Shown: positions 376 to 25,489 of the stretch, in pieces
Layout of the letters: each line of letters starts with the position of its first letter
Numbering within the stretch: position 1 is the first letter of the stretch
From: Psammoneis japonica
Taxonomy: Eukaryota
Direction: 5' to 3'
Length of the DNA stretch: 64,000 bases
Assembly: GCA_008632985.1 (NCBI GenBank)
Contig: QPGO01000093.1
Coordinates: 62,001-126,000, forward strand
The notes under the pieces: model-generated
The model's input: only the letters and a program-made list of their open reading frames with translations
What the model was told of the DNA's origin: nothing
Databases searched by the model: none
Made by a program: the position numbers and the translations under genes

Positions 376-742
376 GGTTGATTTCGTGTGGATGCGTTCC
401 ACGATTTCTGTTGGGGTGCGCCGCCGCTTTGTGTGTGATTTGAATTTAGGTCAGCCTAACGGATGATCATTAAAATAGCTATGTCTCTGAAGCTTTTTAA
501 CATAGAAGTTATCATAACTTTTATTAGATTACTGATATCAAAAATAAAGATAGCCCTTGTCTGTGCGTAGACTAAGTAGAAAACTACGAACCCATAAGTG
601 AAGTTTTCACAGACAAACGGCAAAGCAGATGGCACGTCATTGCCACGTCATCAACAGAATTCTGCTGATTGATGTCATCACCTCCCCTCATTTTTTTTCT
701 TCTTCGAAAATTGTCGAAAAAGAACAAAAAGATCCAGGAACA

Positions 743-1621
743 ATGACACGAAAGATCGGAAGCGCTTCGCTGCTTTTCCTCCTCACCAAAGGTGCCAATA
801 CCTTGATTTTGGGTCCACCCAATCGGGTGATTGTATCACCATCGGTCGCCAAGGCAGATTTTCTTAACCTCGGTTCCGATTTGGAGGCGGCCGTGGCGGG
901 CGGGGCCGAGTGGCTTCACTTCTCGGTACAGGACGGTCGTATGGTCCCCAAGATTTCCTTTGGTGCCCCGGTGGTGGCATCGTGTCGAAATGCCTTCCCC
1001 AACACGGTCTTTGATGTCAAGTTGGGATGCGTCGAACCAGAACATCGGGTCGACGATTTCGTCAAGGCAGGTGCCGACATTCTCAGTGTTCATCCAGAAA
1101 GTACTGTTCAACTCGGGGCGGTGATTAACAAAATTGATAGCGCAGGAATAGCACCCGGTGTCGTGTTGAACCCAGGAACGAGTATTGCGTCTGTGGAACA
1201 TGTTCTCGATCAATGTAAAGTAGCAGTGGTCATGTTGGTGAGTACCGGTATGACTCATGTACACCGTATTTCCATATTTCTGGTCCTCTTATGATGATTA
1301 CAACAATTCACGCCTCTCGATATACCAATGCAGGTCAATCCCGGATATGGTGGACCAAAATATATGAAGCAAGCCGTAAACAAGATTCGGGAGCTTCGTC
1401 AACTCAAGCCAGACTTGCACATTTCGGTAGATGGTGGTGTCAACGAGAAGAATGCTCCTGAACTCATTGCTGCTGGAGCCAATGTCTTGGTTGCTGGAGG
1501 CGGCGTATTCAAGGCGCCCGATAAGACTGTGGCCATTAACACTCTCAAGGCTTGTGGTGCGTCAGACAAGGTATTCCATACAGGTGGGGCCTTTCGGCAA
1601 GCACCTGGTCCCATGCCGTAG
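743..1621 (+). CDS. RPE: Ribulose-phosphate 3-epimerase, 2 exons (743-1237, 1334-1621), probably plastid-targeted
   Basis: Motifs SPSVAKADF, LHFSVQDGRMVPKISFG, VLNPGT, M-L|V-N-P-G-Y-G-G and VDGGVN. GTGAGT donor at 1238 and CAG acceptor at 1333 join the two ORFs in frame. N-terminal hydrophobic leader. Confidence 0.93.
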
Positions 1622-3629
1622 TGTTATTAATGATGGCTTGAGTGGTCGAACCATATTACGACGTAGAGTAGAAATAATTGAGATACGAATGTAAACATGC
1701 CTTATAGACTGGCGGCTCTAATAATATACCGGCACCTAGATGCAGCACCATGCAATGTAAAATGACTGAAGATTCTACCAGCTGCTAGTGTGGCACCGTC
1801 AAGTAACGACACAAAGCATGATGAATCTAATCTGATTGGCGTTCTTCACAAGCCAGGGAACCCGAAAGTCTTCTCTAGTAGCCACTGCTAGAGCTGCAGC
1901 TGGCTAGCTAGATCTCAGAGGAAGCTTACGCTTTCACGTGGAAAGCAAATCTTGCTCGCGGCCCAAATGTCCTCAATCATTGTTCTTGAGCATCAGTGAC
2001 AACCTGGGTCTGTCTTGGTCATGAGGATCGTCAATGTTGGACATTCCGCAACAGTTGATGCCCGACTTTGCTCAGACAGCTGACACCATTCTCATTTCTG
2101 GACATTGGATGGATGACAACATGACACAATCTGCTGGAGCTTTGCAATTTGTGCATGGCATCAGAAGCCGCAACACAGTGGTTTCCACTTTCCTTTGTAA
2201 ATTTTTTAATGTGCATTGTCAAAATTGTTAACAAGCAACATTTGAAAACTGCCGGCAACAGTGCTCAACAAATTGCAGTTGTTTTTTGTGTTTCATCTTA
2301 TGTCTCGTTAACTTTTCTTGCACAAGCTTCAATCAAATGCGTGCAATGTTTAGTTCAATTGGAGTTGACATTTGTGTTTTGTGATGCACAGTTTGGTTTC
2401 CTTTTGATGGTCATCAATTTGAACTTGGTTTCCTCTTTGGCCCTCCTGCTCAACTCACGTGCGTGTGTTTGCACGTGTGCAGTCTACTTCATGCACACAC
2501 TTGACCCACCCTCCATTTCAAATTCCTCTTCATGCTTCCCAGATTTTTGCAGCCCACTGGTCTACGGGGTTTTCAGTGTTTTTTCACATGAGGCACACCC
2601 TCTCCCCAAAAGTCAAAAAGCAAGACCGTGCACTGTTGTGATTCACATGGATTCTATGTTTGGTCACAAATCTGCAAATTGACAGCCGGCCATGGCGGTG
2701 AAAGACTTCACCCCATTGGCCAATGACAGCAACTCAACGCATGGTGAAACCTGCTGTCCTTCTGGTTGGTCAAGACAGGTTTTGATTCTGGCACAGCTTG
2801 ACTTTCGTGACCGCAAGTGTGCTGTCACGAATCTGCCGCATCCAGAATGCTGAGCTGCTGGCGTGTTGTTGTTGTGTGCGTGCACATCACAAACTTGCTT
2901 TTCTGCAGCATTGGCACAATCGTGTGTCAGAGTTTTGCACCCAGAAGTCCAGAATCATTGTGAGTCACCACAAATGACACTCTTCAAACAAGGCATGTGC
3001 AAAAACAGGTTCACAGGTTTTTGATGCATTTGCCAAAACAATGCATCCGTCTTCTCCAATTTCTGTGTCCAGATCCAGAAAGACTGCAGGCAGTGCTTGT
3101 TCCTGCAGCTCTCAGAATCACACGCATGAAAAGTTCTTTGCCACGCATTGCACTCTTCAAAAAAGGCATGCACAAAAAGAGCTTCATTTGGTTTTTGATG
3201 TGTTCACTTGTGTTGCATCCGTCTTCTCCAATTTTTGTCCAGATCCAGAAAGACTGCAGAGGTGGAGAGTGGGGAGGCAACCCATTGGAGGTTGCCTGAG
3301 TTTTTTGGCTCATTTTGAAAGGCTTCCCAAGTCTCTTTGCCATTTCTGGTCCATGCTCTAAACATGCCATTGATGAATCATCTGCAGCATGGGAGGTGCG
3401 GGGCAAACTTGGTCATTGCCATCATGTGACTTTGTCGTTCGCACAGCACCTTGTGCAGTGTGGCGCACATGCAGGTGGTGCTTGTTCCCTTGGCCTTTCC
3501 AGTGAGTGCATTCTGTGACACTTGAGATGTTTTCTGCTTGATCACATGTTTTCTTTCTGTGTTTTCTTTGAGCTGCAGGGGTGGAGCTGGGTGCTTGACG
3601 TCTTGCACCACATGCCGGTGTCCATGTTG

Positions 3630-4080
3630 CTCCAGAATCAGCGGTGCCGGATGCACCAGCAAGTGTGTGTTGCCGCTCATGTTGGTTCATCCATGTTGCA
3701 CTGTCACAATGTGCTCTGTGCTTTTTGGCAATGAATGAGGTGGATCAGAGCAAGAGCACTTCTGCTGCAAACTCACCTGCTCCAGAATCAGTGGCATCAG
3801 ATGCACTGGCAAGTCCATGTTGCTGTTCCCATGGGTCATGTTGGTTCATCTGTGTCACACTCTCACAATGTGTTCCACTCTTTTTGGCAATGAATGAGGT
3901 GGAATGGAGCAGCAGCACTTCAAATGATGGAGCAGCAGCTCCTGCCACAAACTCACCTGTTCCAGAGTCAGTGGTGCCGGATGCACCGGCAAGTCCATGT
4001 TGTCGTTCCTGTTGGCAGCGTTGGTTCACCTGCACTGCATGCACTCTCACAATGCATTCTACACTTTTTTTGCAATGAAC
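3630..4080 (+). repeat. Three diverged tandem copies (~150-180 bp) of an exon+intron-like unit
   Basis: Unit tccaga(a/g)tcag(c/t)gg..gatgcac..gcaagt...ttggttca...cacaatg...ttttt(g)gcaatgaa starts at ~3631, ~3781 and ~3962. Confidence 0.8.
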
Positions 4081-5919
4081 AAGGTGGCTGCCAGCAGCGG
4101 CACTTCAAAAAAGCAAGCTGCCACTGCTGCTGCAAACTTTGGGTGTTGTCACAATCAGCGTCATTTGGTTTCAATGCAAACAACAAAGTGGAGTGTTTGT
4201 GGCACAATGCAAATGATTCTAATTTGCAGGTTTTGTGGGGACAGAGGGTGGGCACTCTCACAGGGAAAATGTGCCCCTGTTTCACAGTGAAACATGTTTT
4301 CCTCATGGGGAGGGGGCTCTGATCTCTGATCCCACAGCACATTTTCATCTGTCACAGCTGACATGTCATTGCCAGCTGCACAACTGTCAAGGTTTGAAAC
4401 AATGGAATTTTGCACTGTGACAGACAAAAAAATGACTGTGAGAAAGGTGGTCTGGATCATCACTGCAATGTGTGCTCTGATGGAGAACAAAGTCATTCAA
4501 TTGATGTCTCCAGCTGATGCATGGGCCCTTTCAAACTGCCAACATCTTTTTTGTGGGATGCCCATCTTGAGCCATCTGTCGCCAACCAGCTTCAAGTTGT
4601 TGGAGTCTGGATCAACCCCTGGGCATTTTGGAAAGTGCACAGTGCTGAGCTGATGATGCTCAGATTGAACACAAGACACACATGGCTCTCCATTGGGAGC
4701 ACTTTTCATGGGGCCTTTGGGCGCTGCATTTGTGTTGCTCCAGCTGCTCGGCTCAAAATGTTGCAAAAAAAGAGCAAAAAACATGGAGGTCAAAGATGTG
4801 CTGTGCCACGCACATGGTTCTTTTTGAGTGGCAGTGCTTCTGCTCCAGGCACCTGACAAGAAGAAAAAGATCTCCCATCTCAACAGACATTTGCAGGCTT
4901 GACAGGCATGTGCCCAGAGGACGGTCTTCAATCTGGGCACGTTTTGTCTCAAAATTGTCACATCGCTGTTGACACGCACCAACTGGTGCTGCCAGCAAAA
5001 TGACAAAAAGACAGGGTTGTCAACCATGAGCACTTGGCTGAGTTGCTGAGGTTGTCCAGCCATCACAGAGCAGGGTTGTGAAAACAACAAGTCCAAAATT
5101 TTGTGTCCAAGAGAAGCCACCCCCAAAATTCTTGAAGAGCCGAATGCGCTGAACATTGTCGCGCCAGTCTGCTGTCATCTTGGCAGACCCTGAGCAAGAT
5201 TGCAGGTTTGCAGATTTGGTGTCTGTGACAACTTGCGCCAAGAACTCTGCCCTGTGTTGTTTTTTTGCTTTTTGCTTGCTTGTTTCTGCAGGGCAAGTTT
5301 TTTGTGACACTTGGTTTTTCATCAACTTAAACCAATTTCAAAGAAGGTTCTGGCATCTGGCCAAACAAGTTGTTGCAAGCGGCAACATGTGTGCACAGCA
5401 ACAGACAGGGTCTTTCCTCTTTGCACACTGAAAAGCCATTGCCTCTTTGCACACCAAAGAGCCATTGTTTTGATGTGTGCAGCCACCAGCACCCAATGCA
5501 CAAAAACTGCAGAGAGTCATGCACTGTGGGCTCTTCTTCCACCACGGAGGCCTGTGACTGACATGCCTGAAATGATGGGCCAATCAAAAAGCATTCACAG
5601 AAACAAAGAGGCCAAGAGAGCAGGATCAAGTTGCAAGTGGTGCGCATGCAACAGACAAGATCTTTCATCTCCCCCCTCTTTGCCGTGCAAGAAATTTTAA
5701 TGAGGGCATGTGTTGTGCCATGCGGCATGCATCCAGCATGCTGCAGGGCCCTGCACACTGTGCAGTGCCACGCAGGCTCTTTGGAAAGGCCGCTCGACAG
5801 GCCTGAATTGAGCCTCAAAATGCGTTCACACAAAAAAGGCCAAGAGCGGAAAGATCCATTCATTGTTTGCCATTTTGGATTTGCGCATCGCTTTTGATTG
5901 TTGGACTTGGCTTGTGACA

Positions 5920-6946
5920 ATGCCAAGCAAAGGAAAGAAAGGAGGCAAGAAGGGTGGCAAGAAGGCGGCAAGAAGGGAGGTTCCAGTGCCGAGACTGCCG
6001 GTGCCAATGCTGTTGCTGTGAAAACCTTTGACCATGAGGGCGATGTTCCTCTGATTTCCGTCACAATCCCATCAGGTTTCTTGGGCAGTGGCAAGACTGC
6101 CCTTCTCAAGACAATTTTGGAGCCCAACGAGCACAGGCTTAGAATTGCCATCATTGTCAATGACATGGCCGAGTTGGACATTGATGCTTCCCTTGCAGTG
6201 CAGCAACAACTTGTCCAGACGGAACGCCAAGCAATCAGTTTGCAAATGGGTGCATTTGCTGTGCTTTGCGGGGTGATTTGATTGTGAAGTGGCTCACATC
6301 CGTCATGACTCTGCCAGTGCTTTTGATTGCCGGCACATCGTGATTGAGTCAACTGGTGTTGCTGAGCTGCAACAAGTCACACAAGCCTTTTGTTTTTGTC
6401 CAAATGCGGCGCAGCTGGCAGAATCCCCAGAACAAATGCTCTGGACCTAAGCCCGATTAGATGTGTGTGTCACTGTGATTGATGCCCATTCCTTTCTGGC
6501 CCACATGGCTGCTCTCTGACAATTTGGAGATGCGCACACGGATGGACTGGATGCAACCACTCCAGAAGGTGCGCAGGAAGGGGAGAAACCAATTGCTTCC
6601 CTGCTCATGGATCAAGTGGAATTTGCCAATGTGACTCCATTGAACAAGATTGATCTCGTTGATTCACCGGAGGAGCTGGAAGAAACGAAGCAAGTGATGT
6701 CAGCTCTCAATCCCGCCACCAAGATTGTCACTGTGGAACGCTGCAAGCTGGATTCATTGAACGAAGTGTTGGGTGCAACCATGTTTGACACTGTGGACAA
6801 AGACAATCAATCACCTGGATGGTTGCTGGGATTGTGAAAGACTGAAGATGAAGACCAACATGCCAGTGAAGTGGATGAGTGTGGTGCATCCTCTTGTGTC
6901 TGTCGGGCCCGTGCACCCTTTCATCCCAATCAAATTGCCAAATGGG
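5920..6946 (+). pseudogene. COG0523/CobW-family (Zng1-like) GTPase metallochaperone pseudogene, copy 1; interrupted at ~6946 and resuming at ~14281-14430
   Basis: GFLGSGKT, IVNDMAELDID, IESTG, DQVEFAN..LNKIDL and RAR.PFHP motifs with frameshifts and stops. Segment 14281-14430 aligns to copy 2 at 16265-16420. Confidence 0.9.
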
Positions 6947-7389
6947 GCCTGTTCCAGCTCCAGGTGCTCCGCGTGGGTTCGATTCCCATCATTGGCCAAT
7001 TTTTAGGTTTAGCGCAAATAACTTTTTCAAAATCCGTTTTTTGCCAAATCGAAGGGTGAGTGTACACTTTACATGTGTTTCCGGGTGTACACTTACCTTT
7101 CGATTTTCGAAATGATCAAAAATGAAGGACTCAATTGTGCTAAATGTGATTTTCGGCTGGTGTCCCATTCTACGTGAAAAATGCTCGTGATCACTCCACT
7201 TTTTCATTTTTCGGAGCTCGTGTGTTTGGTCTTCTTCAACTCAACTGACGTCCGAACACACCTCATTTCTACAGACACAACACAGTTAATTTGATTGAGC
7301 GCGCCAAAAAAATGTGTCCTCTCGACTTGCCATCCGTCTCATCCACCAGCCCTCTCGATGCACACTTTCAATCAAATTTCCAGTGCCCC

Positions 7390-10300
7390 ATGGTCAACAA
7401 GAGGAAGAAGCAAAATGGAGTTGGCCATCGACACAAGTCAGGGACTGGCAACAGCAAAAACAAGAAGCCTCGTCGTGAACTTGAAACACACTCCACGGTC
7501 TCTGACCATGTCGTTGCTGCAGCTGAAGCAGCTGCAGCCACTCCCTTCAATCCGAGCAACCCGAGCTCTGCTGCCTCCGTCACTCCCTCCGTTGCTCCCA
7601 CCGACCTGGCTGCTTTCAACCCGAACCCCTCCACAGAACACCTCGCTCATTGTCCAGTGTCTTCCTTGCCAAGACCTCCAGGCCCCTCCCAAATGCACAC
7701 TGCAGGAGCGGCCGCCACTCCCTCCAACCCTGACTCTGACAATGCTGCCGTCACTCCCTCCGTTGCTCCCACCAACCTGGCTGCTTTCAACCCAAACACC
7801 TCCAAGGAACACCCCACTCATTGTGCAGGTCGTCCTTGCCAAGACCACCAGGCCCCTCCCAAATGCACACTGCAGGAGCGGCCGCCACTCCCTCCAACCC
7901 TGACTCTGACAATGCCGCAGTCACTCCCTCCATTGCTCCCACCGACCTGGCTGCTTTCAACCCAAACACCTCCAAGGAACACCCCACTCATTGTCCAGGG
8001 TTGTCCTTGCCAAGACAGCCAGGCCCCTCCCAAATGCACGCTGCAGGGAGCGGCCGCCACTCCCTCCAACCCCAACTCTGACAATGCCGCCGTCACTCCC
8101 TCTGTCGCTTCAGCCAACCGAACTGCTGTCAACCTCACCGCCTCCCAAGGTTGCCCCACTTTTGATCCTCATGCATTCGAAGCAACCCACAAAGATCCCC
8201 AACAGGCACTTTGTTGTGCAGCGGTCAAAGTGAGAGAAGGAGTGTTGTCTTGCACCGCCACTCAAGAACAACAAATCTGTGCGTTTGTGCATGCTTTGCA
8301 TTTTCCCGAAATGGCCCCATTTCTTGGATTTGAACATGCACGTGATGCCAATGGCAAGACCCTCATTGGTGACACGATGTTTTGATTTTTGATTCCCAAG
8401 CAGTGTCGAAAAATGAACGCAAGTCAATGCAGCATGTGTCAATGCAGCGATTGCACCAACGCCAATTTTCTACAAGATGCATTGAACAGGTTTTGAAGGA
8501 AGCTTTTAAAAGAGATGGAGGTGGAGCAAAATTGGTTGAAGCTTGTGAGTGAGAATCCTGAGAACTTGGAGAACCATGACAGTGCCCTTGGCAAATTGGA
8601 GGAAACAATGTGTGTCTGTCAAGAGGAAGCGTTTGGCCCCAACGGCCATCACCTTCATCCAAAGCCCAAGATGCAGTTGCAACCATCATTTGTGGCAATG
8701 TCAATGGTCAGGATCATCCTCATTGGAAATGCATTTTGGGTGAATGCGAGCATTGCCCATCCCATCCAACTCCATTGTTGGAACAGAGTGAAAGTCCCAG
8801 TGCGCCCCAAGTTTTGTTTCAACGTTGCTTGACTGTAAAAAGTTGTTCCAAGCATGGTGTGTGCATGGAAGCATGTCCTGTTTGTGAGGCAGATCCAGAT
8901 GGGAACAAGGACACAAAGGTGAAACGTAGGACCTTGTTGACAAGGTTCCGAAAACCAGTCGGTGTCTTTACAAAAGAGCACTGCATTCCAAGTTTAGAGA
9001 AGCTCCACTGCCACCTTCCCCACGCAGTCATTCTTGGGAAAAATCATTGCATGGAAATGTGTTGCAAAGCATTTGAGTCAACACCCAACAGCCTGTTCAT
9101 GTCTCATGACTGCTCCGAGCATCAGAAGGCAGAGTTCAACCACCAAGTTCAGGGTGACCATTGTGGCAACAACCAAACATTGTCAATCGAAGGAAGAGTT
9201 TGCGATGCAATGGTTGACAACGAGCTTCAGAAAACACATCATGCGCATCTCTCTGACTCTTCCAAGCAAGATGCCACCACCACCAACGCTCACTTGGAAA
9301 AGTTTGTCACCTGGTTAAAAAACCGACCTGCGCAAGGCGTGGCTTGTGATTTGGGATCACACTGATGGTTGTGCCAAACAATGCCGATGTGCTTTGGCAC
9401 TGCACTTGTTGTCTGTCTTTGTGCACAAATGCAACATTGTGTTTGACCGCCATTGGAGCACCTGGACATGGCAAAGGAGAGGTTGATGGCATTGGAGCCT
9501 ACATTGAATCACTCATGCGTCGAGAAATGCAGTCCACAACTGTTGCAGGAGTCAATGACAAGGATGGGAAAATTAGACCTGAAGCTTTGGTCATGGATGA
9601 CAACAGTGTTGCAGCCGCACACAGTTGTGCAAAGGAATGTTGCAAAATGGTCACAAAGAACAAGAATGCTTTCGGCGCAGTTGGCGACAGAAAACATGCC
9701 AAGAGGGAATCCCTTTGAAAGTCAACACAAAGGGTGTGTCATCTGCAGGAAGCTGACGAAGTTCTTGGCTCTTCAATCAAAGTCAAGTTGATTGGATTGG
9801 TGCAAGTGCACACATGCCATTGTGGCATTGGAGCCTTGCACCATTTCCGATTTGAACCTCTTTTCCCCATTGGTTGGGTTGCAATGCAAAGAATTCCTTG
9901 TGCTTGTGAAGCCTGCCTGGATCAGCTGAAACGGCCTTGGGTTAAAAATGTTGAGCCAACAGAGCAGCCATGACATGCAGGTGGCAACCCGAGCTTGCAA
10001 ACTGTGGCCCATCTTTGAGCGACTGAACGATTGGCAAGTGTGTCAGGTGATTCAAACAGACAAGAGTGATGCCGACGAGGTGCAGTTGGTTCACAAATCT
10101 GTGCTGGACTCCCCAACTGAGGAAATGGCCAAGGAAATTGTTCCAAACAGCCATGCCGCATTGTCTTGTGAACTGAGGAGGGATTCTGTCTGCTGCAATG
10201 GGATGAACTCCCCCACAAAGCACAGGAGGACGAGGTTTGGAAAGAGTTTGACCCACCCACAACTGTTGAGGCCGGTGAATGGGTTTGCAAGGGAACGTGT

Positions 10301-10680
10301 CTCAACCCTGTTCCACGGGCCAGAGGATGGCACACTCCCGGTGATGCTGAGGAATGCAAGACAAGAGTGTTGCTCAAGCAAATTACAGTTGCCAACATTG
10401 AGCTCAATGAACCATCAGCCAATCTGGAACTGCCAAGTGCGTGCAACAGGAATGAGGCTTCACTTCTTCATCCACGTCATTTGAGTGATGACGAGCATGA
10501 AGGAATTCTGGATGCCATCCGACAGCGGGAGGCAATGGATCATTTTGAGGACTGTTCAGACGAGGTGGAGGAACAAGACATGAAACTGGTGAGTGGGAGG
10601 GAGAGAATGACGACATGGAAGACACTGTGGAGGATGATGAGAGCATGGCAGGGGACAGTGACAGTGACAATTCGGACAAA
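7390..10680 (+). pseudogene. DDD/E-type transposase relic (unclassified, Sola-like motif set)
   Basis: Broken frames give D(C/Y)SE..AEFNHQVQGDH, HLSDSSKQD, WDHTDGCAKQ(C/Y)RCA (9352-9393), GAPGHGKGEVDGIG and a C-terminal RIPCACEAC, followed by an acidic tail. Superfamily assignment is tentative. Confidence 0.7.
7537..8110 (+). repeat. ~171-bp tandem repeat, about 3.3 copies, in the Pro/Ala/Thr-rich N-terminus of the transposase relic
   Basis: gccactccct(t/c)caa...gtcactccctc...ctggctgctttcaaccc...ggcccctcccaaatgcac recurs at ~7537, 7714, 7884 and 8056. Confidence 0.9.
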
Positions 10681-10699
10681 TGAAATGGCAATGTTGTGC

Positions 10700-13600
10700 A
10701 ACTAGATCAACCATCCAACACAAAAGCTTTCCTTTTTGCGTGCAACTTCTGCTGCACGCCCTGGGAAGTTCGAACTGGTGCACCATGAACACTTGTTGCA
10801 GACGCTTTTTTGCCACGCATTTCACCTCATGTTCCTCATTCCCAAGACACCAATTGAAACACTTGATGTCCTTTGCTGGCAATGCAAAAGGGTGGTTGGA
10901 ATCAAAGATCCATCCACGGTGCAAGGCAATGGAGTGGTTGTTCACAAGACGGCACAAAGTCATGAAGTCATCATTGCAGGTTGCCATGTCAAATTCACCA
11001 CCTGCTGCAAGGGAAATTGTTCGATCCACACTGTTGCAAAACTTCATGTTTGAGTTCTTGGGCGGGAATTTTCCCTTCAAACGACCGTTCAACATGTTCT
11101 TTGCAAACAACATGCGCTTGTTGTTAGTGCCAGCACAGTTGGCAGATGTTTGAATGTGAGAAGCAATGCAGTCTCTCATTTCCACATGCCAGCACAATCA
11201 AGAACACTGGCCAGGGAGGAAAAAACGCAAGTGTCGTTTTGTCCTTGCAGGAATTTTGCAGGTGGACCACTTGTCGGCAAGTTGCTGTTCGATGGCATCA
11301 ACACGGTTCCTTCCAGCAAGGAGTGACAACCATCTGATGGCTTCAATTCTTTCAAATCTTTCCACACATCTGGAAACCAAAACTGAAATTGCACTCAGCC
11401 CAATCCAGGGTCACACACATGGGACGGTTCCCCTCCAAGCTGCAGCCAATGAAATCAGCTCCCCGCCCAACAGGTGGAAGTTTTTGAATCTCCGCTTCAG
11501 TCAATCTCTTCAGTTTGGCAATCTGTGGCGGGTTGCAAATCGATTCCACCTTGCTCTTAATCTCGTCCCTGCATTTTCGATTGAGTTGCTGGGGAACGTT
11601 TGGTTTGTGTTTGGCACGTAAAATGAGGCCCGCACACGTGTTCATGGGATGGCCGTTCATTTCATTGTGTCGCGTGTCAAACCATGGTTCCCACAACATG
11701 ACGCCCTTGTTTTTCCCTTCAAAGCAACCAAACAAGTGAGGAACGTCTCCTTTGGAATTGCCAGGATGCTGATGCCTGCTGTTCCATTTACTTGGATCAA
11801 TCCAAATGAGTTTTTTAACCTGCAACATCACTTGAGCATCTTCGTGCTCACGCTTGAGTCGATCCCTTTCTTGTTGGTGTTGCTGCACTTTGGTCAACCA
11901 ACACCATGAAGTGTCTCCTTTTGCCCTTGGTTTCGGGACAGAGCTACGAAGGCCAATGAGATCCTCATCCTTGTGCAATCCAGTTGTTAATTTCAAGGTC
12001 TCATGCGAACGTTGCATCCAGCGTCTCCCACTGTCTCCCGCTTCTCTTCTGCAGCCGGGGCTTTCTTCCTCTTGTCTCTTGCAGCCTTGGCTTTCTCCCT
12101 CTTCTCTTGAGCTGCCTTGGCTTTCTCCCTCTTCTCTTCAGCAGTCTCAGATTTCTCCCTCTTCTCTTCTGCAGCAGCAGAAACTTCTTCCTTGTGTTCA
12201 TCGTCCTCCTCGTCCTCAGTTGCCTCTGGATCTTGCTCCTCCTGGATTTCGTCTTGCACACCATCATCTTCCTCCTCTTCCTCAGCCGATTGATCCATGG
12301 CCCCATCTTCCTCCTCTTCCTCAGCCGATTGATCCATGGCCCCATCTTCCTCCTCCTGGTTTTTGTCTCGCAGTTGCAACCTTGCAGTGCCAGCCTCGGC
12401 CTTTTGTGGTCATCCGTCTCTTCAGTGCCCTCCTTCCCCTCTTCCTCTTCCTCCTCCTCCTCCTCCACCTCTTCCTTCAACCCTGCATCACGGGCACTGG
12501 CGTGATGCATGCAACGATGGCAACGAATCCTTCTGCAAAACTTGCACCATGCAAGTCCAGGAGCTGCCTTGCACCAATCAGCAAGGTGAGCGAGCGGCTC
12601 TTTGAAATGATCCTTCCTGCTTGGTCGGCAGGGAAGTGAACTTCAACCATTTGTTTGTCTTCAGTGATGGCCTTCACTAACTCGGAGTGTCGTTGCGGCT
12701 TGAAAGGCTTGCACCACTGGTCCGGTGGACAAGTGGTGCCTCTGCATTCACCATCAGAGGCAACCTGCAATGCATGGTTGTACCACCAACCCACAATGAT
12801 GTCAAACAAGGCCTTGGATGGCAGTCTGTCATCGGGGTCGAATGGCCCAAATGAGAAAATCCTCCAGCAGCCACTCATGCAACTCATGAGCACATTGCAT
12901 GGTGCGTTGGTGGGAAGTTTGGGAACGCAGGGATCTTCCTGCATGTCATCATCCAACTGTTCAAGCTTCTCCCTTTTGTGATGCTCGTCATGAAAAACAT
13001 GATCGTCACTGTGATCCACAATGGGCTTCTTCAACTTCTTATAGCTGATGCGTGGTTTTCGACGCAGCTTTTTGTCCACCTGCTTCCTCTGAGCGATTTC
13101 GTTTGGAACAGAGCGATGGTTGCAGATTGAACCCCAGTGCTGTTTTGCAGATGGAAAGGGATGTCTTGTTTCACATTTGAACTTGACGTCCAACCCCTTC
13201 AAAGCCATGCATTTCAAAACTGTTCTTCACCCCCTTTGGAGACTTAATTCGCCGCCAACTTTGAAACACGACCTCGCCAAAAGGCAGCCACGCATGCATC
13301 TTTAAATCTTTGGTCGACTTTTCGTCATCGTGCGTTTCTAGGTTTTGAATGTTGACCAAAGATGCCAAGTGGAATCGGCGCTTGGCAATGCATGAATGAT
13401 CAGCAATGCATCCTCCTTCAACAAGCGGTTCGTCCCAACAGTCTTCATCCTTGCGGATCTCTGTTGCAACGTTCTGATGCTTGGCACTGGAATGAGGCAA
13501 TGCCAAAACAATTGCAGAGCTCATTGGAGTAATCCTCTCCTTTGCACACAGGGCAACAGTGTTGCCTTGATCATTCATCATGAGATCACCCCAGTCCCAG

Positions 13601-14205
13601 TGCTTGCGGACGTCCGCCAGATCAGAACGATCACTCATGGTGTCCGTGGTGTCCTCAAAACCCATCACTCCCATGCAATGAGACTTCAAAGTCTTCTGAC
13701 AATGAAGACATGCATCCATCTTCTTGACAACACCATGGCAAATGGCTTGGGCAAGTCCAGTCAAAAAAGGACATGCACCTCGACTCAACGGCACGATCGA
13801 TTGACTCTCATCGCCCGTCCCAACTGACACAACCGGAGACTCCGTCACACGGACACAATCAACAAGCAGGCCAATGTTTGTCTTGACACGGTGCATCAAA
13901 ACAGCAGCAACATTTTGCTTGTCCTTCACGGCGTCCCTCATCAACATTCCTGATGGCACCACAACCAACATCAAGAGGTGCTGGTTCTTGTCCTTGATGT
14001 GTTGGTTTAGTTGCGGTCGATTCTCGGAGTTAAATTTTTCACAAAACCAATCGACAACAGTGCTGCGGAATGTGTTCCGTGTTTTGGCACTGTTGACCCA
14101 TCCAAACCATTCTTGTGATGAAGAACATGAAAGAGAGGGCTCATCTTCTTTGTTCCACGATCTTCTGTGGTCAAGATGCTCAAATCTACAAGACCTTGAG
14201 GGCAC
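10700..14205 (-). pseudogene. Transposon cargo gene relic: GNAT-like region, Glu/Lys-rich repeats, C-terminal papain-like peptidase region
   Basis: 13600-13950: VAAVLM..LLVD(C/Y)VRV..RG..L..LAQ..LHCQKTLKS..MGF. 12000-12480: acidic 30- and 42-bp repeats. 10800-11260: QGQNDTCVFSSLAS..NHSIAL.RGWIFDSN. Motif recognition only. Confidence 0.5.
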
Positions 14206-14439
14206 TCAAGGGGATCAACTGCATCTTGGAGAGGCACAGTGCACCAAGTTTTGGCTTCACCCTGCGGCGGGTGATGTTCCGCAGCACGCCAATCCCAGTC
14301 AAGTGGATCCAAAGCGCAAGCACATGATCGAAAACCATTTCAACATTTTGCACTCCAAAGGGTTCTGTTGCAAGCAAACGTTCTTGCATGTGTTGTTTGT
14401 GCACAAGCTGATGGATGCTTTTTCTCACATTTTTTCAAA

Positions 14440-15200
14440 ATGTTGTGTGTCCAGCCACCAAGAGATGCCATTCCCAACAAACTTGAGGAGTCAAACATGC
14501 AAACATTGTGCCAGTTTGCTGTCTTCACAGGCCCTGAGCAAGATTGTGAGTTTGCAGATTTGGCATCCCCAACAACTTGCCAAACACCTTGATCCATGTG
14601 TCATCTTTTTGCTTTGCTTGTTTTTCTGCGGGGCAAGCTGTTTGTGACACTTGATTTTTCATCAACTTTGACCAACTTCAAAGTTCCTGGCATCCAGTCC
14701 AGCAAGCTGCAAGTGACATGCATGTGCAGCAGCAGAAGGGATTTTCTTTTCCTGCACACTGAAGCCCAATGTGCGCACATTGTAGAGTGCACACGGGCTC
14801 TTCTTCTGCAGAGGCCAGGCCTGTGACATGCCCAAATTGGGCCTGATCAAAAGACATTCACAGAAATGAAAAGGCCAAGAGAGCAGAACAAAGTTGCAAG
14901 TGGTGTGCATGAAACAGACTGGATCATTCATCTTCCCTCTTCACTGAACGGGAATTTTTCTTTTGATGACATGATGTGAGTGCAGCATGCAGCCAGCATG
15001 CTCTGCGGGTGCTGCACTGGCGTGATGCACAGGCTCTTTTTCACAAGGGCCTCAACAGGCCTGAATTGGGCCTCAAAAGACATTCCCAGAAAGGCCAAGA
15101 ACATGTGAAGATTGAAGATCTGTTCTGATCTGGACTCACACTCTAGTTCATTGTTTGTTTGCCATTTTGGATTTGCACATCACTTTGTTTTGATTGGAAT
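14440..15200 (+). repeat. Diverged duplicate of 5100-5900 (segment upstream of each CobW copy)
   Basis: Shared ccctgagcaagattg..tttgcagatttgg, ggcctgtgac, ggccaagagagcag and ttgccattttggatttgc in the same order. Confidence 0.85.
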
Positions 15201-15207
15201 TTTAGCA

Positions 15208-16830
15208 GTGCCAAGCAAAGGAAAGAAAGGAAGCAAGAAGGGCAGCAAGAAGGGAGGTTCCAGTGCCAAGACTTCCAATGCTGTGGCTGTCAAAACCAAA
15301 GCCCATGAGGGTGGTGACATGCCTCCGATCCTGTCACAATCTCATCAGGTTTCTTGGGCAGTGGCAAGACTGCACTTCTCAAGAACACTTTGGGGTCCAA
15401 CGAGCACAAGCTCAGAATTGCCGTCATTGTCAATGACATGGCCGAGTTGAACATTGATGCTTCCCTTGTGGTGCAGCAACAACTTGTCCAGATGGAAGCA
15501 ATGCCAAGTTGTCAGTTTGCAGATGGGTGCATTTGCTGCACTTTGCAGGGCAATTTGATTCACGAAGTGGCTCGCATCTGTTGTGACTCTGCCAGCACTT
15601 CTGACAGCATCATGATTGAATCAACCAGCATTGCCAAACTGCAACAAGTTGCACAAGCCTTTTGTTTTAATCCAAGTGCTGCACAACTTGCGCAATCCCC
15701 AGAACAAATGCTCTGGACCCAAGCCCAATTGGACACCTGTGTCACTGTGATTGATGCCCATTCATTTCCGGTCCACATGGCCACTCTCCAAAAATTTGGC
15801 AATGCGCACATGCATGGATTGGATGCAACCACTCCAGAAGGTGCACAGGACGGGAAGAACCAGTTGCTTTTCTGCCAAATGGATCAAGTGGAATTGCCAA
15901 TGTTGCTCCATTGAACAAGATCAATCTCTCATTGATTTGCTGGAGGAGCTGGAAGAAATGAAACAAGTGATCTCAAGCCTCAATCCCACAGCCAAGATTG
16001 CAGCCGCGGAATGCTGCAAGCTGGACATTCATGGAATGAAGTGTTGGGTGCAACCATGTTTGACATGGACAAAGACAATCAATCACCTGGATGGTTGCTG
16101 GAATTGGAAGAGAATGAAGAAGAAGGCCACCACACTGGTGAAGTGGATGAATGTGGTGCATCCTCCTGTGTCTGTTGAGCCCATGCACCCTTTCATCCCA
16201 ATCAAATTGCCAAATGGGCAGCCTCCTGCTTGTGCTTTGAAGCAAATGGAGGGGTTTGTCCAAGGAGCAGCGCGCCAATCCCAGTCAAGCGGATCCAAAG
16301 CAAAAGCACATGATGGAAAAGTGTGGCAACATTTTGTGTGCCAAAGGATTCTGTTGTGAGCAAAACGTTCATGTGCAATGTTTGTGCACGAGCTGATGAA
16401 TGCTTTTTCTCACATTTTTTCACATTTTCAGGGCTGCATGTTGGATCATGGTTCCTTCATGATTGGTTTGGCTCAATCAGGCTAGACAGGATCTTTGTTG
16501 CCACTCATGCCATGGCATGTCATTGTGTCAGAAATGCACTGGGGTGTTCCATCTGATTTGGAAGATCATGCAATCATCAAATCCAAGTTTGCCAAACCCC
16601 GTGGAGATTGTTGACAAGAATTGGTGTTTGCAGGCACCAACCTCAAAACACAAAATGTCAAGGCTGATTTGGACAAGTGCCTCTTCACCAAACAAGAGTT
16701 GGAAAATTGCGCATTTTGCTGTGATTGGGCTTCTCTTGAAAAGCAGAGTCATGCACCGCATTGTGGAGGATGCCAAGTGGAGCAGCAGTTCAATGCCACA
16801 GGGCAACAAATGTGTGACAATCACCTTTTC
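15208..16830 (+). pseudogene. COG0523/CobW-family pseudogene, copy 2, with intron relic 16356-16431
   Basis: GSGKTALL, IVNDMAELNID, DGCICCTLQG, IESTS, KGFC|WL across the intron, and GD..QELVF.G..DLDKCL; multiple frameshifts. Confidence 0.9.
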
Positions 16831-19800
16831 GCATTGTTGTTTCTTTGAATGGATGCATTTTCAAAATCTCTTAATTTTCTTCTGCTTGTGGATTCCACGT
16901 TGTCAGCAAAAACCACTCTTTGAGGCTGCTGGATGGTGTGCTGCAGCTGAGGAGAAAAAATTGTTTGCCCAATCAACAAGTTGCACTTGCAAACTGTGTG
17001 CATCTGGCTGCATGTTGTGTGGTGCCACTGCTTGTCACACATGCCTGCACCATCCATGCTGGGGTTGAAATGGCTTGTGTGGGCTCAACCTCTCTGCATC
17101 TTGTGGCACTCAGTTCATTGCCAGCATCCTGGGTGTGGCTCAACAACAGCCACACAACAGAAGGGAAGTCAAAGACACAAACAACCACTGTTTCAAATGT
17201 CAGTCATCAGCTGCAGTTGCTGCTGGAATCAAGCACCAATGAGGCTTGGTGCTTTTTCCTTGAAAAAACATTGTCAACAATTGTGGCAAAAAGCTGGCCA
17301 CTGCCCTGCCATTCAAGGTCAGCATGTTTGGTGCTCATCATTGCAAGAGCTTGATTGTTTCCTGAAGTGTGGCTGATTGATCACTCATCAAAACTGTGCA
17401 AAAAGGGAAGCACAACCATGATTGTCAAGCCACACTGCATCTGGACACACTGCACAGTGAAGAGCAGCTGAGATCATCCTTCACCTTGCTGTTCTCTGTT
17501 GGCTCTGCTGTCACAACCACAATTTTGCATTCTTGCTCACTCTCTAGATGTGGGGCCAGCATGCACCAATGAAAACATGCATCTGGTGGGGAGCTGCTGC
17601 ACCAGTGTTGTTCACAACAGGGCAACAATGCCAAAATGAGCTCCTCCTCAGATGGCAGAGAATTTGTCTCATCACTGGACTTGGCGCCAGGCTTGGCAAA
17701 GGCAGGGTCAGCAGCAGTCTGAGATGGAGGCCTGGGTGGCATGCCAGAGCAAGGATCAGCTGCAGTGACAAGATGTTCACATCTGGTTGTTCCATTTTTG
17801 AGTGGTTTGTTAATGTGATCTGCACTTGTCCTTGTGACAAGGGCAAAAACCCTTGGTGATGGTGTGCTTGCACACAGTCTTTGGCAAAAACAAACAGCCT
17901 GCCAAACTCAATCACCATGGCTGGCTTGCTGAGATCTGTTTGTTGGTTGCATCCACAAGGATCATCAGCCAGAAACTCCTTCAGCTTTGGTTGTTTGTTG
18001 TCCTCAGGTGAGAGTTCTTTGGAGCAACGGTGCAGGAACAGCAGCCACAGCCTTTGGGTTGTGGCTGCTTTTGTGTCAGACTTTTTTCTTCTCAGCTTGA
18101 CATTTTGCACACTTTGGGCTTTGGATCATTTGCCCAGCAGCTGTCAGCACTGCAAGAGCAGAGTGCACCCTTTCCCACAGTCTTGGAAGCACTGTCACTC
18201 TGTGGGAGCTTGGCACCAGAAAGACCTGGCCAGCTCTTGTTGTTGGCAACAAGATTCTAGCACTTCTGTTGGGTGCTGTGAGAGCATGGCATGTGCAATC
18301 AGACCCAGATCACCACAGTCACCACCCCCAGGGCAAGCAAAACAGGACAAGCAAAATGGTGTTTGCACCCCCCTGCTGTGACGGCATCCAATGTGGAAAA
18401 GATGAAACAGCTTGGCACCTGGCTGGGCATCTTGGTGACAGTCCAATGGGGGGGTTGGGCATCATTGAGACTGGAAGTGCTCACGCTGTTTGAGGTGTCA
18501 TGCTTGATGAGACAAAGTGCTTTGGCCACAAACTTGGCAATGTCCTGACTGGCACAGGAGTCAAGACCTGAAGCTTGGAAATCTTCAAGAGCTTGGCTGA
18601 CACTGCAGATGGTGGGCATGCTGCATGTCTTGATCACCACAATGAAAAGTGTTCAGCCTGGACATTCTTGTTGATGGTGGAGCTTTTGCTTGTGCCCACA
18701 TTTGGTTGCTGTCTCTTGTGGAGCTGACAAGCAAGAAAGACAAGATTTGACAATGAGGCCGTCAGCTGGGTGACATCAGGCTTGCAATCCTTGTGTGCCA
18801 AGAGCTTGGCAGCAGCACTCCTGCACAATGTTTGCAACCTCCTGGACAGCAAAGCTGCGAAGGTGAGCAGAGAGGAGTTGAACAACAAAGGAGCTGATGT
18901 GGAAACCCCTTGCAAGTTGGCCCTTGTCCAGCTCCTCCTCACTGGTCTGGCCTTGCTCTTTGGCAGCCCCCCCCAGCTCCAATCTGCTGCCAAACTTGAC
19001 AATGTCAGTGCCATTGTGAGCATCTTGGAGATTCCACTCAATGTGTGGCAGCACCTTCTTGTCATGAGATTGACTGGCAGAATGGCAGGACTGTGTCATT
19101 TTTGGCTTGCAGCCATCATTGAGTGGTGACCCCCCAACCCCACATGGTGATCACACTTGGGACAGGAGAGCCCACCATGCTTGAAGTGACAGCAAAGCAA
19201 GCCACACAAACAAGTGAAGAAGATGCTTGTTGGTGGTGGACAGAAGGACTCAGAAACTCCTCAACAGCATGCTTCCAGCAGTGGAAAAAACAGCGCACTG
19301 TGCAAAATTGGGGCTTGCACAGCAAAGACATGGTGGCACAGCTTCATGAAGCAAGGGTGGCTGCTCAAGGTTGCAAGCCAGTGCTGATGTTGATGCAAAA
19401 GCAGCTTTTGTCAAAGCAGTTTTGGCTGCAATCTGAGCTGGATTTCTGTGCCAAAATGGTGCAGTGGCCATTTGCTCAACACAGACTTTGTCAAAATTGT
19501 GTTCACGAAGCAACGTCATCTGTCACAGAGATCATGCAGGGGCTGGTGCCAAAAAGTGATGACACACACATTGTCTGTGACTCACCTTGTTTGTGAAAGA
19601 CTCTTCATTGCACTTGTCTCCCAATCTTGGTTGGCATTTTTCTTGCTTTGGGACTTTCAGACAAAGCAGTGGATCAGCATGAAGAGCAGAGCCACCAAGA
19701 AACTCAAAGAAGTGACCAACAAAGGAAAATGCTTTGTGCAACAGTCATTTGCGTCTTGGAGTTGCACAAGAAATCATTGTTCTGTCTCTGCCATTGTTCA

Positions 19801-20124
19801 CTCCTCCTTTCATGAAACAAACTAAGCTCATGAATTTGGTTGCACACACCAAAGTCACTTCCTTCACAATGTCCCATGAGGCAAACATTGCATTCACACA
19901 TTGGGAGCCACAGTTTTGCCAGGAACTTCACAGACCTTGGCACTCTCTTCACTGTCCAGCTCCACACACAAATCAACCAGCAATGCCAGAGCAAGAATGA
20001 CATTGTGTGGCATCCCCTTTGCACATGCTGTCTCATTGGCGAAGCAGACAAAAGTGAGTGCTCGTCCATTTCTGAAGATGAGCAGCCTCTGCAAGACTGA
20101 ACAAATCAACCCAAACCTCCTGCC

Positions 20125-20460
20125 TCAAACAGCAACAAACCTTCCTTGTTGTGCACAGGTGCAGACTTTGGTGCTGCCCAAGAATTGACAAAATTGACAT
20201 GGGGTCCACAAATTTGCCACTCAACAGAAGCTGCAATGCCTGCACACATTTTCATCAAAAGCAAGCACCACTCGTTGTGGCCCACTTCCAGAGATGATCA
20301 CTTTGGCAATCTCTCATGTGGTGGCAACCCTCCCTTGTTGCATGTGGTTGCAAACTTTGGCGCTGCTCAAGAATTGACAAAATTGACATGGGGCCCACAA
20401 ACTTGCCGCTCAAGAGAAGCTGCAGCAGTGCACTGCACATGTTTGCATCAAAAGTGAGCA
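20125..20460 (+). repeat. ~195-bp diverged tandem duplication
   Basis: actttgg(t/c)gctgc(c/t)caagaattgacaaaattgacatgggg(t/c)ccacaaa at ~20165 and ~20354. Confidence 0.85.
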
Positions 20461-20689
20461 CAGCTCATTGCCCTCCACTTCCAGCACAATTTCTCATCCT
20501 TCCAATGATTTAAAAGGATTGCAGCCCCGCAAGTTGTGCACCATTTTGCAACAAATGGTTTCCAAATCTAAAACCTCACAATCCATTGCAATGATGGACA
20601 TCATGTCTGTGACCACTGATGCACCCTCATTTGACTCCAATTCATGGTCTGAAAACCAACCCCCTCACACCATGTTGGCCTGACAATTG

Positions 20690-21070
20690 GCTTCATCAAC
20701 AAGCATGAATGGCACATCAATGCCGACATCTCCCTGCAAGGAGCTTGCAGTGATTTGGAGTGGGCGGGAGATTTCCTTGTTGTCAGCCATGTCAATCACA
20801 CAGAGAACAGCTCTTTAGAGTTGGCTTGGCATTTGCAAATGTGTCTTTTTTTTAATTGACTGCCTTGGAGATGCTGGCAGCAAACATGACATTGTGGCCA
20901 AATGCAGAGGCAAAATGCCGTCATTGTTTTGGACAGACATGCTGCTTGAAAAACAATCTCCAAGAAGCTTGGCAATTGCTTGTTCCCCCAATGCAGCTGC
21001 AATGTGCAGTGAAAAGTTCGCACCTTGGTCAAATTGTGGACAATTGGTGGACACTTCCAAGCTGAGGAGC
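20690..21070 (-). pseudogene. Ankyrin-repeat gene relic
   Basis: DQGANFSLHIAAALGEQAIAKLL and QNNDGILPLHLA match ankyrin consensus G.TPLH.AA..G...V..LL. Confidence 0.65.
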
Positions 21071-22079
21071 TGTTCATGAGATCAGGAGTCAGGAGATGCC
21101 AGAGCACACACTGAGAGCTCAAGCAGTTGCTGCACTCCTGTCCTGACACAAGCCTGTGAAGAGCACACACACACACTGGTGGAGCCAAGCAACATGGTTT
21201 CTTGGTTGAGGCACGCAACTTTTCACAAGCATCTCAAGCTTGAGTTTCCTTGTTGCCATTTGGCACCTCCTCACCAGACACAAGTTTTCTGTGTGCATTT
21301 TCTTTTGTGGTGTCAAGGCCTTTTTCAACAACCAGCCTCCTGCAGGCAACAGCACAATCTTCTTTTTCAGATGCAAGCTTTGTTCCAGAGACCAGCATTC
21401 CACAGGCATTGTTTTCTTGGCCAGCCATGCCTTTCCCATCAACAAGTTGTCTGTCCATGTGCCGGCTGCCATTCTCTGAGCAAGTTGAAAAAATCATCAT
21501 TGTCCCCATCACTTTGTGCCCTCACAACAATGTTCGTTCAGCTGCTGAGCTGCTGGAAGCAAGTTTCTGTGTGCTGCAAAAGAGCACAATCTCTTTCTGG
21601 AGTTGCAAAAGCTTTGCTGGGCACCAACTTGCCACCACATGCCTTCTCTTCTGGCTTGGTTGTGGGCATCCCAGTTGTGATTTTTCAATGTGCAGTCACA
21701 GTGTTTTGCTCATCATTCTTCATCAGCATGAGCTTTCTAAATGCAACCTCCTCTTTGTTGGTCAATGGCTTGCTGAAAACCATCTTGTGGTGTGCTGAAG
21801 CAGCTCTGACATCTCTCTGCCAAGAGACATTTTTTTTCTGAAAGCAATGGATTCAAGGAGTTGTTGGAAGCTTTTTGGCACTGTCATTGAGAAGATTGAC
21901 TGCAGTTGTTGTTTGAGAAAAGACTGGGAATTGTGGAGTGGGAGAGTCAGGGAGAACAAAATCAGAGTGGGGCATGTGCAGCAGAGAGCAGCAGAGGGGT
22001 GAAAGACAGAGAAGAAAGAGGGGCCCCGGAAGTGCGGAGAGATGGAGGGGCAGAAGTCATGGGGGGCTGAGCTGGGAAG

Positions 22080-22440
22080 GATTGAAAGGTGGTGAGATGG
22101 TTGGACCGGGCTGAGGGCTGGAGGTGCAGCGAGAGGAGCCAAATCAGAAGTCAGGGGAGAGATGCTGCCGTGCAACATTGGCTTGGGAGAGAAGGTTGAT
22201 CGGGGAGAGATGGGGAATTTGGCAGGCAGAAAAAGCAGCTTCAGAGTTTGAAAAGTCAGTGGGGTTGTTCTGCCACCGACCTGCCCAAGGGGGCTTGGGG
22301 GGAGGAGGTGGGATGGAAGAGGAAGTGTCCTTGGAGGAGCAGCAGAAAAAGGCGCGGAAGTGGTGTCCAATGCCGCCAAGGTGGTCAAGGGGAAAAGGTA
22401 GAAGGAAGAGGCCTGATTCATTAATGGAAGAAATGACGGA
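22080..22440 (-). mobile_element. Possible 3' fragment of a non-LTR retrotransposon ORF
   Basis: Reverse frame reads LFLLPFPLDHLGGIGHHFRAF..PPPPKPPW..FGSS..TSSP, reminiscent of RLE-type element C-termini; weak. Confidence 0.3.
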
Positions 22441-22696
22441 AGAGCCGGCACTCTACTACGGCAGTGGCTAGCTGCTCTCTGCTAGAGTAGAGAGTAGAGA
22501 TGGTAGAGAGCACTTTCAGAGAGAAGACAAGGAGCCGCGTCCGAGAAGCTTGTGCGTGTCGTGTTCAGTGTCGGTCGGCTCGCGGGAAATCGCGCACCCT
22601 GGACTCGACCCACACCTCACAATGACGACGAGCCGCTCGACAGATACGCATTTTCCACATATGCCAGCTGTATTCACAGAATAAGAGCTACGAACC

Positions 22697-23860: not shown

Positions 23861-23972
23861 AGATGTAGCAATAGAAATGATAGAAACTTTAAGAGAACTC
23901 TCTATAGTATCTAGTTAATCACGTATCTCCTTTAGAAAAATCAAATCGCAGCGCCGATCTTAGCTTTAAGGC

Positions 23973-25072: not shown

Positions 25073-25489
25073 GGCGGTTCCTTCTGCTCTGTATCTTCCC
25101 TTTCAGATTTGATTGTGGCAACGAACAACGCAGCTTGTATCTTCTCAGCTTGACTGTGATCGAGTGGTTGGTTGGGTTGCGTCTCCGGTGTGTCAGTGGA
25201 TCTTTAGTAGTGCCGTTCTCGCTGTTTTTTTGGATTCGCTATTTTTTTCGCTTGTGACGTGGAGAGTTCGTGCAGGCTCGTGACAATTGATTTTTCAAAA
25301 AATACGCTGGAAAACAGAAAAACCCTAAAAGACTACCAAACCAAAACAAAATATTCGTATTTGCCTCTGTTCTTCCCATTTTCAGATCCTCCTCGCTCGC
25401 TCACCGCTCACCGCTCACACGCTCACTCGTCACACCGTTGTTTGTTGTGTCGATTACCATCATCTCTTCATCTTCAATCTTTGACCGCA

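Follow-up and report, generated by a model that had tools for sequence, protein, structure and literature searches.

Near-complete replacement of TpA by TpG and CpA in sharply bounded domains of diatom DNA

We have analysed a 64-kb stretch of DNA from Psammoneis japonica (64,000 nucleotides; contig QPGO01000093.1 of assembly GCA_008632985.1, forward-strand positions 62,001 to 126,000), referred to throughout as the window and numbered from its first letter. In four domains, which together cover about 40% of the window, the dinucleotide TpA (TA) has been almost completely replaced by TpG or CpA (TG/CA), and CpG (CG) has been lost from the same DNA to a variable extent. We think it likely that this pattern was produced by a mutator targeted to repeats, which acts at the level of DNA and converts A:T to G:C at TpA, followed by the ordinary decay of CpG carrying 5-methylcytosine (5mCpG).

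The main domain (1929–22398) contains 73 TA in 20.5 kb, where about 810 would be expected; its observed/expected (o/e) ratios are 0.02–0.69 for CG and 1.4–2.0 for TG/CA. Between 2001 and 22400 there are 74 TA, whereas the window's normal density would give about 812 (Poisson P ~ 1e-245). Taken in 1-kb intervals, the TA o/e is 0.01–0.19 across 2001–22000 and 0.40–0.83 outside the domains. The edges are sharp: the normal spacing of TA ends at 1927 and begins again at 22399. The other three, which the initial annotation did not mention, are a small intergenic domain (29294–30365), TA-free over its 1072 bp and with about half of its CG left; a second large domain (44211–47595), with 16 TA in 3.4 kb; and a small domain (62200–62872), with 0 TA in 673 bp and part of its CG kept. 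The initial annotation of this DNA had described a dominance of TG/CA at low TA over some 20 kb, and the dinucleotide o/e in 1-kb intervals agrees with it. Its figure of about 3 TA per kb inside the domain stands (3.5 were counted); its 45 per kb for the adjacent DNA is too high, the density being about 40.

If TA and CG are lost, what takes their place? Strand-symmetrised counts per kb for normal and domain DNA are 39.8 and 3.5 for TA, 55.9 and 18.8 for CG, and 143.4 and 216.6 for CA/TG. The combined loss of TA and CG, 73.4 per kb, is balanced by a gain in TG/CA of 73.2 per kb. The remaining dinucleotides lie at 0.86–1.31 of normal, A+T shifts by 3% and the GC content is nearly constant. Since the A-containing dinucleotides besides TA stay at 0.86–1.05 of normal, we conclude that the change is specific to TpA. 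We also simulated the process on the window's own normal DNA, allowing only the conversion of TA to TG/CA (91%) and of CG to TG/CA (66%). The simulation returned 217.1 CA/TG per kb (observed, 216.6) and a GC content of 0.472 (observed, 0.491). The fit was poorer for the dinucleotides GC (58 simulated, 72.5 observed), CC (98 and 111) and GA (139 and 122), which may reflect a different underlying sequence.

Do TA and CG disappear by one process or by two? The number of TA per 250 bp is bimodal: 51 intervals stand at 0, and beyond a trough at 3 the counts peak again at 9–12. In the 79 intervals with no more than one TA, CG is spread evenly between 0 and 12 per 250 bp, compared with a normal mean of 13.7. 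The loss of TA is thus all-or-none and that of CpG graded, and we conclude that they are separate processes. In the small domains and in the right margin of the main domain (22027–22398), which is TA-free and where CG is back already (10 CG), TA is zero while a third to a half of CG remains. The loss of TA must therefore proceed independently of CpG decay and at a higher rate, and the suggestion of the initial annotation that the two are distinct is upheld. Overall, CG is kept at 0.34 of normal, its retention ranging with the flanking bases from 0.65 in CCGC to 0.20 in TCGA, a pattern that fits deamination of methylated cytosine.

These distributions bear on a first alternative, a slow and untargeted decay in which a weak A:T-to-G:C bias at TpA operates in non-coding, methylated, late-replicating DNA without dedicated machinery. 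The loss of CpG in the same DNA is clearly gradual, as such a decay would be. The bimodality of TA is not what it predicts, and the small domains, with TA at zero and about half of CG in place, would require TpA to outpace 5mCpG, to our knowledge the fastest mutating of the passive site classes. By our own estimate the change at TpA lies about 100-fold above background per site; moreover, the transition at the borders, beside housekeeping genes, takes no more than tens to hundreds of bases. We consider slow decay unlikely.

In which direction did the bases change? The main domain holds two copies of a CobW/G3E GTPase gene, at 6048–6945 (copy 1, plus strand) and at 15330–16743 (copy 2, plus strand, including the C-terminal domain), which match Pfam cobW with E-values of 3.3e-14 and 8.4e-31. 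The domains are recognisable but the reading frames are broken by stops and shifts (frameshifts with TGA and TAA stops in copy 1), and the copies are therefore pseudogenes rather than intact GTPases. Their nearest relatives are diatom proteins, at a best identity of 62%. Forty homologues were compared with them by tblastn, a position being scored when at least 15 homologues were aligned and at least 70% agreed. None of the 10 conserved Tyr is kept (7 became Cys, 2 His and 1 Ser), with Tyr going to His and Cys in copy 1 and to Cys, His and Ser in copy 2. Conserved Arg is kept at 8 of 20 positions, the others having become His (3), Cys (3), Gln (2) or stops (4), all four outcomes being found in copy 2. 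Trp (9/9), Cys (10/10) and Met (7/7) are kept throughout and Gly at 30 of 31 positions, the remaining one being Ser. Two motifs had been singled out beforehand as mutated. In HIVIESTG the codon at 6334 is indeed CAC (His), where 97% of the 40 homologues have Tyr; in ECGASSCVCRA the codons at 6880 and 6901 are TGT (Cys), where Tyr is found in 100%.

There were 127 changed conserved positions, of which 86 allowed a unique single-step inference, 25 called for several steps and 16 were ambiguous. Among the 86 single steps, A>G accounts for 25 (16 after T), T>C for 14 (9 before A), C>T for 12 (8 before G) and G>A for 19 (16 after C), with 16 transversions in all. In each of the 16 A>G steps after T the next base is C or T, a count that is biased by Tyr codons. 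The CG half of the pattern behaves as decay of 5mCpG does, its loss being graded and its changes lying before G (C>T, 8 of 12) or after C (G>A, 16 of 19). As the sole cause, however, deamination of 5mCpG is ruled out, since TA supplies 36.3 of the 73.2 per kb gained by TG/CA, or half, and 16 of the 25 A>G steps follow T. For slow decay it can be said that 37 of the 86 single steps fall outside a TA or CG context.

A second family records the same direction. A transposase-like relic (8580–9800, plus strand) belongs to a eukaryotic family without a Pfam model, marked by the motifs RDYAER, DGCxKQYR and GAPGHGKDxVDG. Its 261-aa open reading frame (ORF), 8580–9362, has no Tyr, while Cys makes up 7.7% and His 7.3% of it; the frame breaks after 9362. 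This ORF has 229 relatives at E ≤ 0.001, and Tyr makes up 2–5% of most of them. At nine conserved Tyr columns the window's copy has no Tyr (4 Cys, 1 His, 1 Leu), while intact relatives have Tyr in 100 of 135 cells; the motif previously read as DGCAKQCR starts at 9364 and corresponds to DGCxKQYR in the family consensus. Pfam found no family in 12 long intact relatives, and in a protein-cluster atlas the relatives occur only in uncharacterised eukaryotic clusters, one of them with DUF7869. The family resembles DNA transposons more than retroelements. The observation of the initial annotation is thus confirmed and its interpretation supported in part: TA goes to TG/CA, opposite in direction to repeat-induced point mutation (RIP), as Tyr turns into Cys or His; A>G is enriched at TpA in the inferred CobW steps; CpG decays at Arg codons; and both a mobile element and gene copies have been inactivated. 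Silenced, methylated chromatin, a mutator enzyme and a role in defence would go beyond these findings.

Might the domains instead be foreign or viral DNA whose native composition was selected against TA and CG, for example to escape a nuclease or RNA decay? Avoidance of CpG and UpA is a feature of viruses and mRNAs. Such selection should not have destroyed conserved Tyr and Arg or left in-frame stops and frameshifts; moreover, the intact relatives of the transposase-like protein have 2–5% Tyr and normal TA, and the CobW pseudogenes are closest to diatom proteins. None of 32 metagenome loci encoding transposase-like relatives, a set that excludes contigs encoding Tyr-less proteins, was TA-poor (lowest TA o/e 0.27), so low TA is not a trait of the family. 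A native origin of the composition is very improbable. Among the 150 relatives listed, five have less than 0.5% Tyr. Four Tyr-less ones that were aligned (P0262, P0280, P0313 and P0332, from separate JGI and ENA metagenome contigs) are 30–38% identical to the window's copy and, as protein predictions only, carry Cys or His at most of the conserved Tyr columns. Of these four, one keeps conserved Arg at 4 of its 5 positions and another at all 5. All four appear to be read-through ORFs of transposon relics from which TA has been erased, and Tyr-less, Cys- and His-rich ‘hypothetical proteins’ of this kind in public protein sets are a source of false gene models.

Could the missing TA be an artefact of sequencing or assembly, a modified base at TpA and CpG having been misread in DNA that really keeps both? 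A modified thymine at TA is known in dinoflagellates (PMC11572971). In sequencing run X1, 0.93 of the sampled words of the window are present. A contig derived from the X1 reads (10481 letters, word depth 59.7) spans 16189–26661, across the domain border, with 23 other letters and 8 gaps; a second (4202 nt) spans 27395–31596, including the small domain 29294–30365, with 4 other letters. As X1 has no recorded platform and may itself be the source of the assembly, this agreement is strong but not fully independent. Misreading of each strand by itself would set CA against TG at about 73 sites per kb and should shatter a 31-mer assembly, and this assembly is not shattered. The Tyr to Cys/His signature appears, in addition, in the protein predictions from the separate JGI and ENA metagenome assemblies. 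We regard an artefact as very improbable. The differences between the window and the X1 contig are themselves uneven: at least 19 of the 23 fall in the domain, which makes up 6.2 kb of the 10.5 kb of overlap (binomial P 0.016), and 12 of those 19 are transitions from one YpR dinucleotide to another (Y, pyrimidine; R, purine), 9 involving CG and 3 involving TA.

How is the outcome at each site, TG or CA, decided? Along the domain the two succeed each other as in a series of coin tosses: TG makes up a fraction of 0.496, a runs test gives z = +1.0, and overdispersion in blocks of 20–100 sites is 0.95–1.26. Processive deamination of a single strand, which would leave strand tracts, is rejected by the runs test and by an overdispersion of about 1. 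The flanks of surviving TA in the domains are far from random. RTAY has 3 sites left, a retention of 0.011 relative to normal DNA; RTAR and YTAY together have 26 (0.051) and YTAR has 43 (0.283). We fitted a per-strand model of additive rates, high at 5'-TAY-3' and low at 5'-TAR-3', on the extreme flank classes. It predicts a retention of 0.056 for the mixed classes (observed, 0.051) and places 78% of their outcomes on the TAY strand. Among tetranucleotides, YTGY plus RCAR gain 28.1 per kb and YCAY plus RTGR 13.7 per kb, which corresponds to 81% if the outcomes derived from CG are symmetric. The surviving flanks thus fit a per-strand motif in which 5'-TAY-3' would become TGY. TTAA is the best-surviving context, with a retention of 0.48 and 18 sites in the domains (for example at 5327, 9315, 13244, 20510 and 45813), which may reflect resistance to the process or re-creation of the sites.

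Were the changes made on the chromosome? The main domain contains a duplicated unit whose copies, A (5107–6946, plus strand) and B (14458–16218, plus strand), are 79.6% identical. TG in one copy is opposed to CA in the other at 36 places, and such double differences number 3 and 0 in two duplicate pairs with normal TA. The 36 discordances lie within what is expected if ancestral TA and CG were resolved independently in each copy, and the changes therefore arose on the chromosomal copies. A rough estimate (concordant minus discordant sites) suggests that most conversions, not all, postdate the duplication. Over 1709 aligned bases the units have diverged by 20% and show 111 transversions; the age of the domain that this implies is in keeping with slow decay.

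The same duplicates bear on a further alternative, in which RNA, cDNA or excised DNA was edited by an ADAR-like enzyme or another deaminase before integration, so that the domains are stacked, pre-edited insertions. Two insertions edited independently would also yield TG-versus-CA discordance, and the sharp domain edges could match the ends of elements. Adenine deaminases have, in addition, a 5'-pyrimidine preference (PMC10188366). An RNA or cDNA intermediate, however, would mark one strand per element, and here both strands are changed equally and no tracts are seen. The domain also includes CobW pseudogenes of host type and the TA-free, CG-keeping margin at 22027–22398; the window and a contig from the same sample, X1, differ by TA versus TG/CA at 3 sites; and the transposase-like family resembles a DNA transposon, not a retroelement. 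Editing before integration is, in our judgement, distinctly unlikely.

How far does the change follow repeats? The region 12001–14668 is a member of a repeat family, with many diverged X1 contigs and a summed word depth of about 550–2250, compared with about 60 for the border-spanning contig. An ORF within it (13174–14205, minus strand) has no homologue at E ≤ 0.001 in the near-length range. The main domain thus combines this many-copy family with the unit 5107–6946 repeated at 14458–16218 and with a segment, 16670–19337, of single-contig depth. Two patches inside it have normal TA, 2198–2351 and 7004–7320. The second, normal in CG as well as TA (11 TA in 284 bp), carries a short inverted repeat (gtgtacac...) and begins at the truncation point of CobW copy 1; it may be a small element inserted after mutation.

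The repeat-targeted mutator that we favour would act on chromosomal double-stranded DNA and be confined to segments rich in repeats and transposons, its target being either the repeats or a chromatin domain. Each TA would go to TG or to CA, independently at each site and with equal odds, after which the site would no longer be a substrate. The agent would read one strand at a time, turning 5'-TAY-3' into TGY, which on the complement takes 5'-RTA-3' to RCA. It would be saturating, at least about 97% of the favoured sites being converted. A slower decay of CpG to TG/CA, resembling deamination of methylated cytosine, would proceed in the same segments. Jointly the two would remove Tyr and Arg codons and create TGA stops at a constant GC content. 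Two classes of enzyme are equally open as candidates: a TadA/ADAT-like DNA adenine deaminase, and a thymine dioxygenase of the TET/JBP type, with a product that mispairs or is misrepaired. A bolder proposal, to which we would not quite commit ourselves, is that diatoms may possess a programmed chromosomal mutator mirroring RIP, an enzyme acting on 5'-TAY-3' on either strand of repeat DNA and converting TpA to TpG or CpA nearly to completion. This would be either the first natural DNA adenine deaminase or a mutagenic thymine dioxygenase.

Several points weigh against the targeted mutator. The patch 7004–7320 lies unmutated inside the domain, so that chromatin context alone is insufficient unless the patch is recent. 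The segment 16670–19337 is TA-free at about single-contig X1 depth, and repeat status thus leaves some of the pattern unexplained. The age of the duplicated units makes the pair uninformative on speed. The direction of change is read from protein conservation in two families without an unmutated DNA ancestor, in a spectrum short of the full 96 contexts. The domains seen are only four, a small sample for an all-or-none loss of TA. The 81% bias in outcome assumes strand-symmetric outcomes at CG, and three of the four visible Leu changes are at YTAY going to YCAY, the favoured outcome there being silent and hence invisible.

How does the pattern compare with known systems? RIP, a premeiotic process which in Neurospora and other fungi depends on RID or DIM-2, is a hypermutation confined to repeats and transposons, as the change seen here may be, and it likewise consists of dinucleotide-specific transitions and comes near saturation. 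Its limits are sharp, with little leakage into neighbouring genes, it inactivates transposons and duplicated genes, and decay of the cytosine-methylation type accompanies it. The chemistry differs: RIP runs from C:G to T:A, mainly CpA to TpA, and its product is rich in AT and TpA, whereas the change seen here runs from A:T to G:C and erases TpA at a constant GC content. The host is a diatom, not a fungus, and no strand tracts are seen. Both RIP indices are inverted, TpA/ApT being 3.5/54.1 = 0.065 and (CpA+TpG)/(ApC+GpT) 216.6/112.4 = 1.93; the TpA excess that defines RIP is therefore absent. Deamination of 5mCpG in methylated transposons would account for the CG to TG/CA half of the pattern, with its changes of Arg to Cys, His, Gln or TGA, and cannot remove TpA.

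We know of no natural DNA adenine deaminase that acts on chromosomes. The tRNA adenosine deaminases and the base editors derived from TadA do convert A to G on one strand in a neighbour-dependent manner. One such editor, ABE7.10, favours 5'-YAY-3' (PMC10188366), and the 5'-TAY-3' motif proposed here falls within that preference. Base editors, however, are engineered enzymes that Cas9 directs to single-stranded DNA, and in the domains CA is spared and accumulates, so that the 5' base must be T. ADAR/APOBEC hyperediting of retroelements also inactivates mobile elements by clustered transitions, and ADAR prefers a 5' U. Those enzymes, however, act on RNA or single-stranded cDNA, on one strand per event and in tracts; here both strands are changed site by site, and DNA other than retroelements is affected too. 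Oxidised thymine mispairs with G and could give T>C at TpA. In dinoflagellates, TET/JBP dioxygenases produce 5-hydroxymethyluracil (5hmU) from thymine, preferentially in TA and TC, where it is enriched in repeats and silences transposons (PMC11572971). That paper treats 5hmU as an epigenetic mark, does not report it as a mutator and has no mention of diatoms (0 occurrences of the word). In the domains, the TC context is unaffected. Base J of kinetoplastids is a related modification.

A literature search by simple word matches, confined to the main texts of papers available without subscription, found no report of hypermutation from TpA to TpG/CpA in diatoms or elsewhere. If real and enzymatic, such a process would be a second genome defence based on hypermutation, outside the fungi and with another chemistry (A:T to G:C), and would imply a new natural enzyme with tight TA(Y) specificity on chromosomal DNA, of relevance to DNA repair, epigenetics and base editing. 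Because the change at TpA is GC-neutral, screens by AT-richness or by RIP indices would miss it. DNA free of TA lacks TAA and TAG stops, with the consequence that gene callers predict long false ORFs; repeat finders would be misled, as would the dating of transposons by their divergence. A bimodal TA o/e at constant GC is, on the other hand, a simple signature for which any genome can be screened.

What else do the domains encode? Among 102 stop-free ORFs of at least 90 aa in the main domain (its 95 ORFs of 60–89 aa lay outside the scan), cobW alone exceeded the curated Pfam cut-off. None of the 63 ORFs of at least 60 aa in the other three domains, those at 44211–47595 included, did so. A Pro/Ala/Ser-rich ORF of the main domain (7249–8382) contains three tandem copies of about 175 bp, 82–87% identical, at 7523–8150.

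The window belongs to the nuclear genome of a diatom of pennate type. Its argininosuccinate synthase gene (40484–41755) is at most 90% identical to unnamed proteins and 84–86% identical to proteins of Cyclophora, Cylindrotheca, Pseudo-nitzschia and Nitzschia. The main domain is flanked in TA-normal DNA by a gene with a ribulose-phosphate 3-epimerase domain (602–1294, plus strand), which is not mutated, and by a tetrahydrofolate dehydrogenase/cyclohydrolase gene (22685–23860, plus strand), which begins 290 bp from the domain edge. Other housekeeping genes of ordinary composition around the domains are those for argininosuccinate synthase, DNA ligase I and tRNA/rRNA methyltransferases. The DNA ligase I gene (49607–52605, plus strand) is split over two overlapping ORFs, 49607–50827 and 50815–52605, which may mean that an intron or a change of frame separates the N-terminal from the adenylation part. 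Two long minus-strand ORFs in TA-normal DNA, 54081–57209 (1042 aa) and 35117–37210 (697 aa), have no Pfam match. Two genes in tandem (26081–28694 and 31019–33374), with PT repeats and a CBM96 carbohydrate-binding module, are 81–87% identical, and the small TA-free domain 29294–30365 sits between them. Finally, contigs of a further run, X2 (listed as ‘DNA?’, word depth 701), omit 91 and 103 bases with CT..AC ends at 24513–24605 and 24791–24895. These gaps resemble the splicing of transcripts from a minus-strand gene, and X2 may hold RNA.

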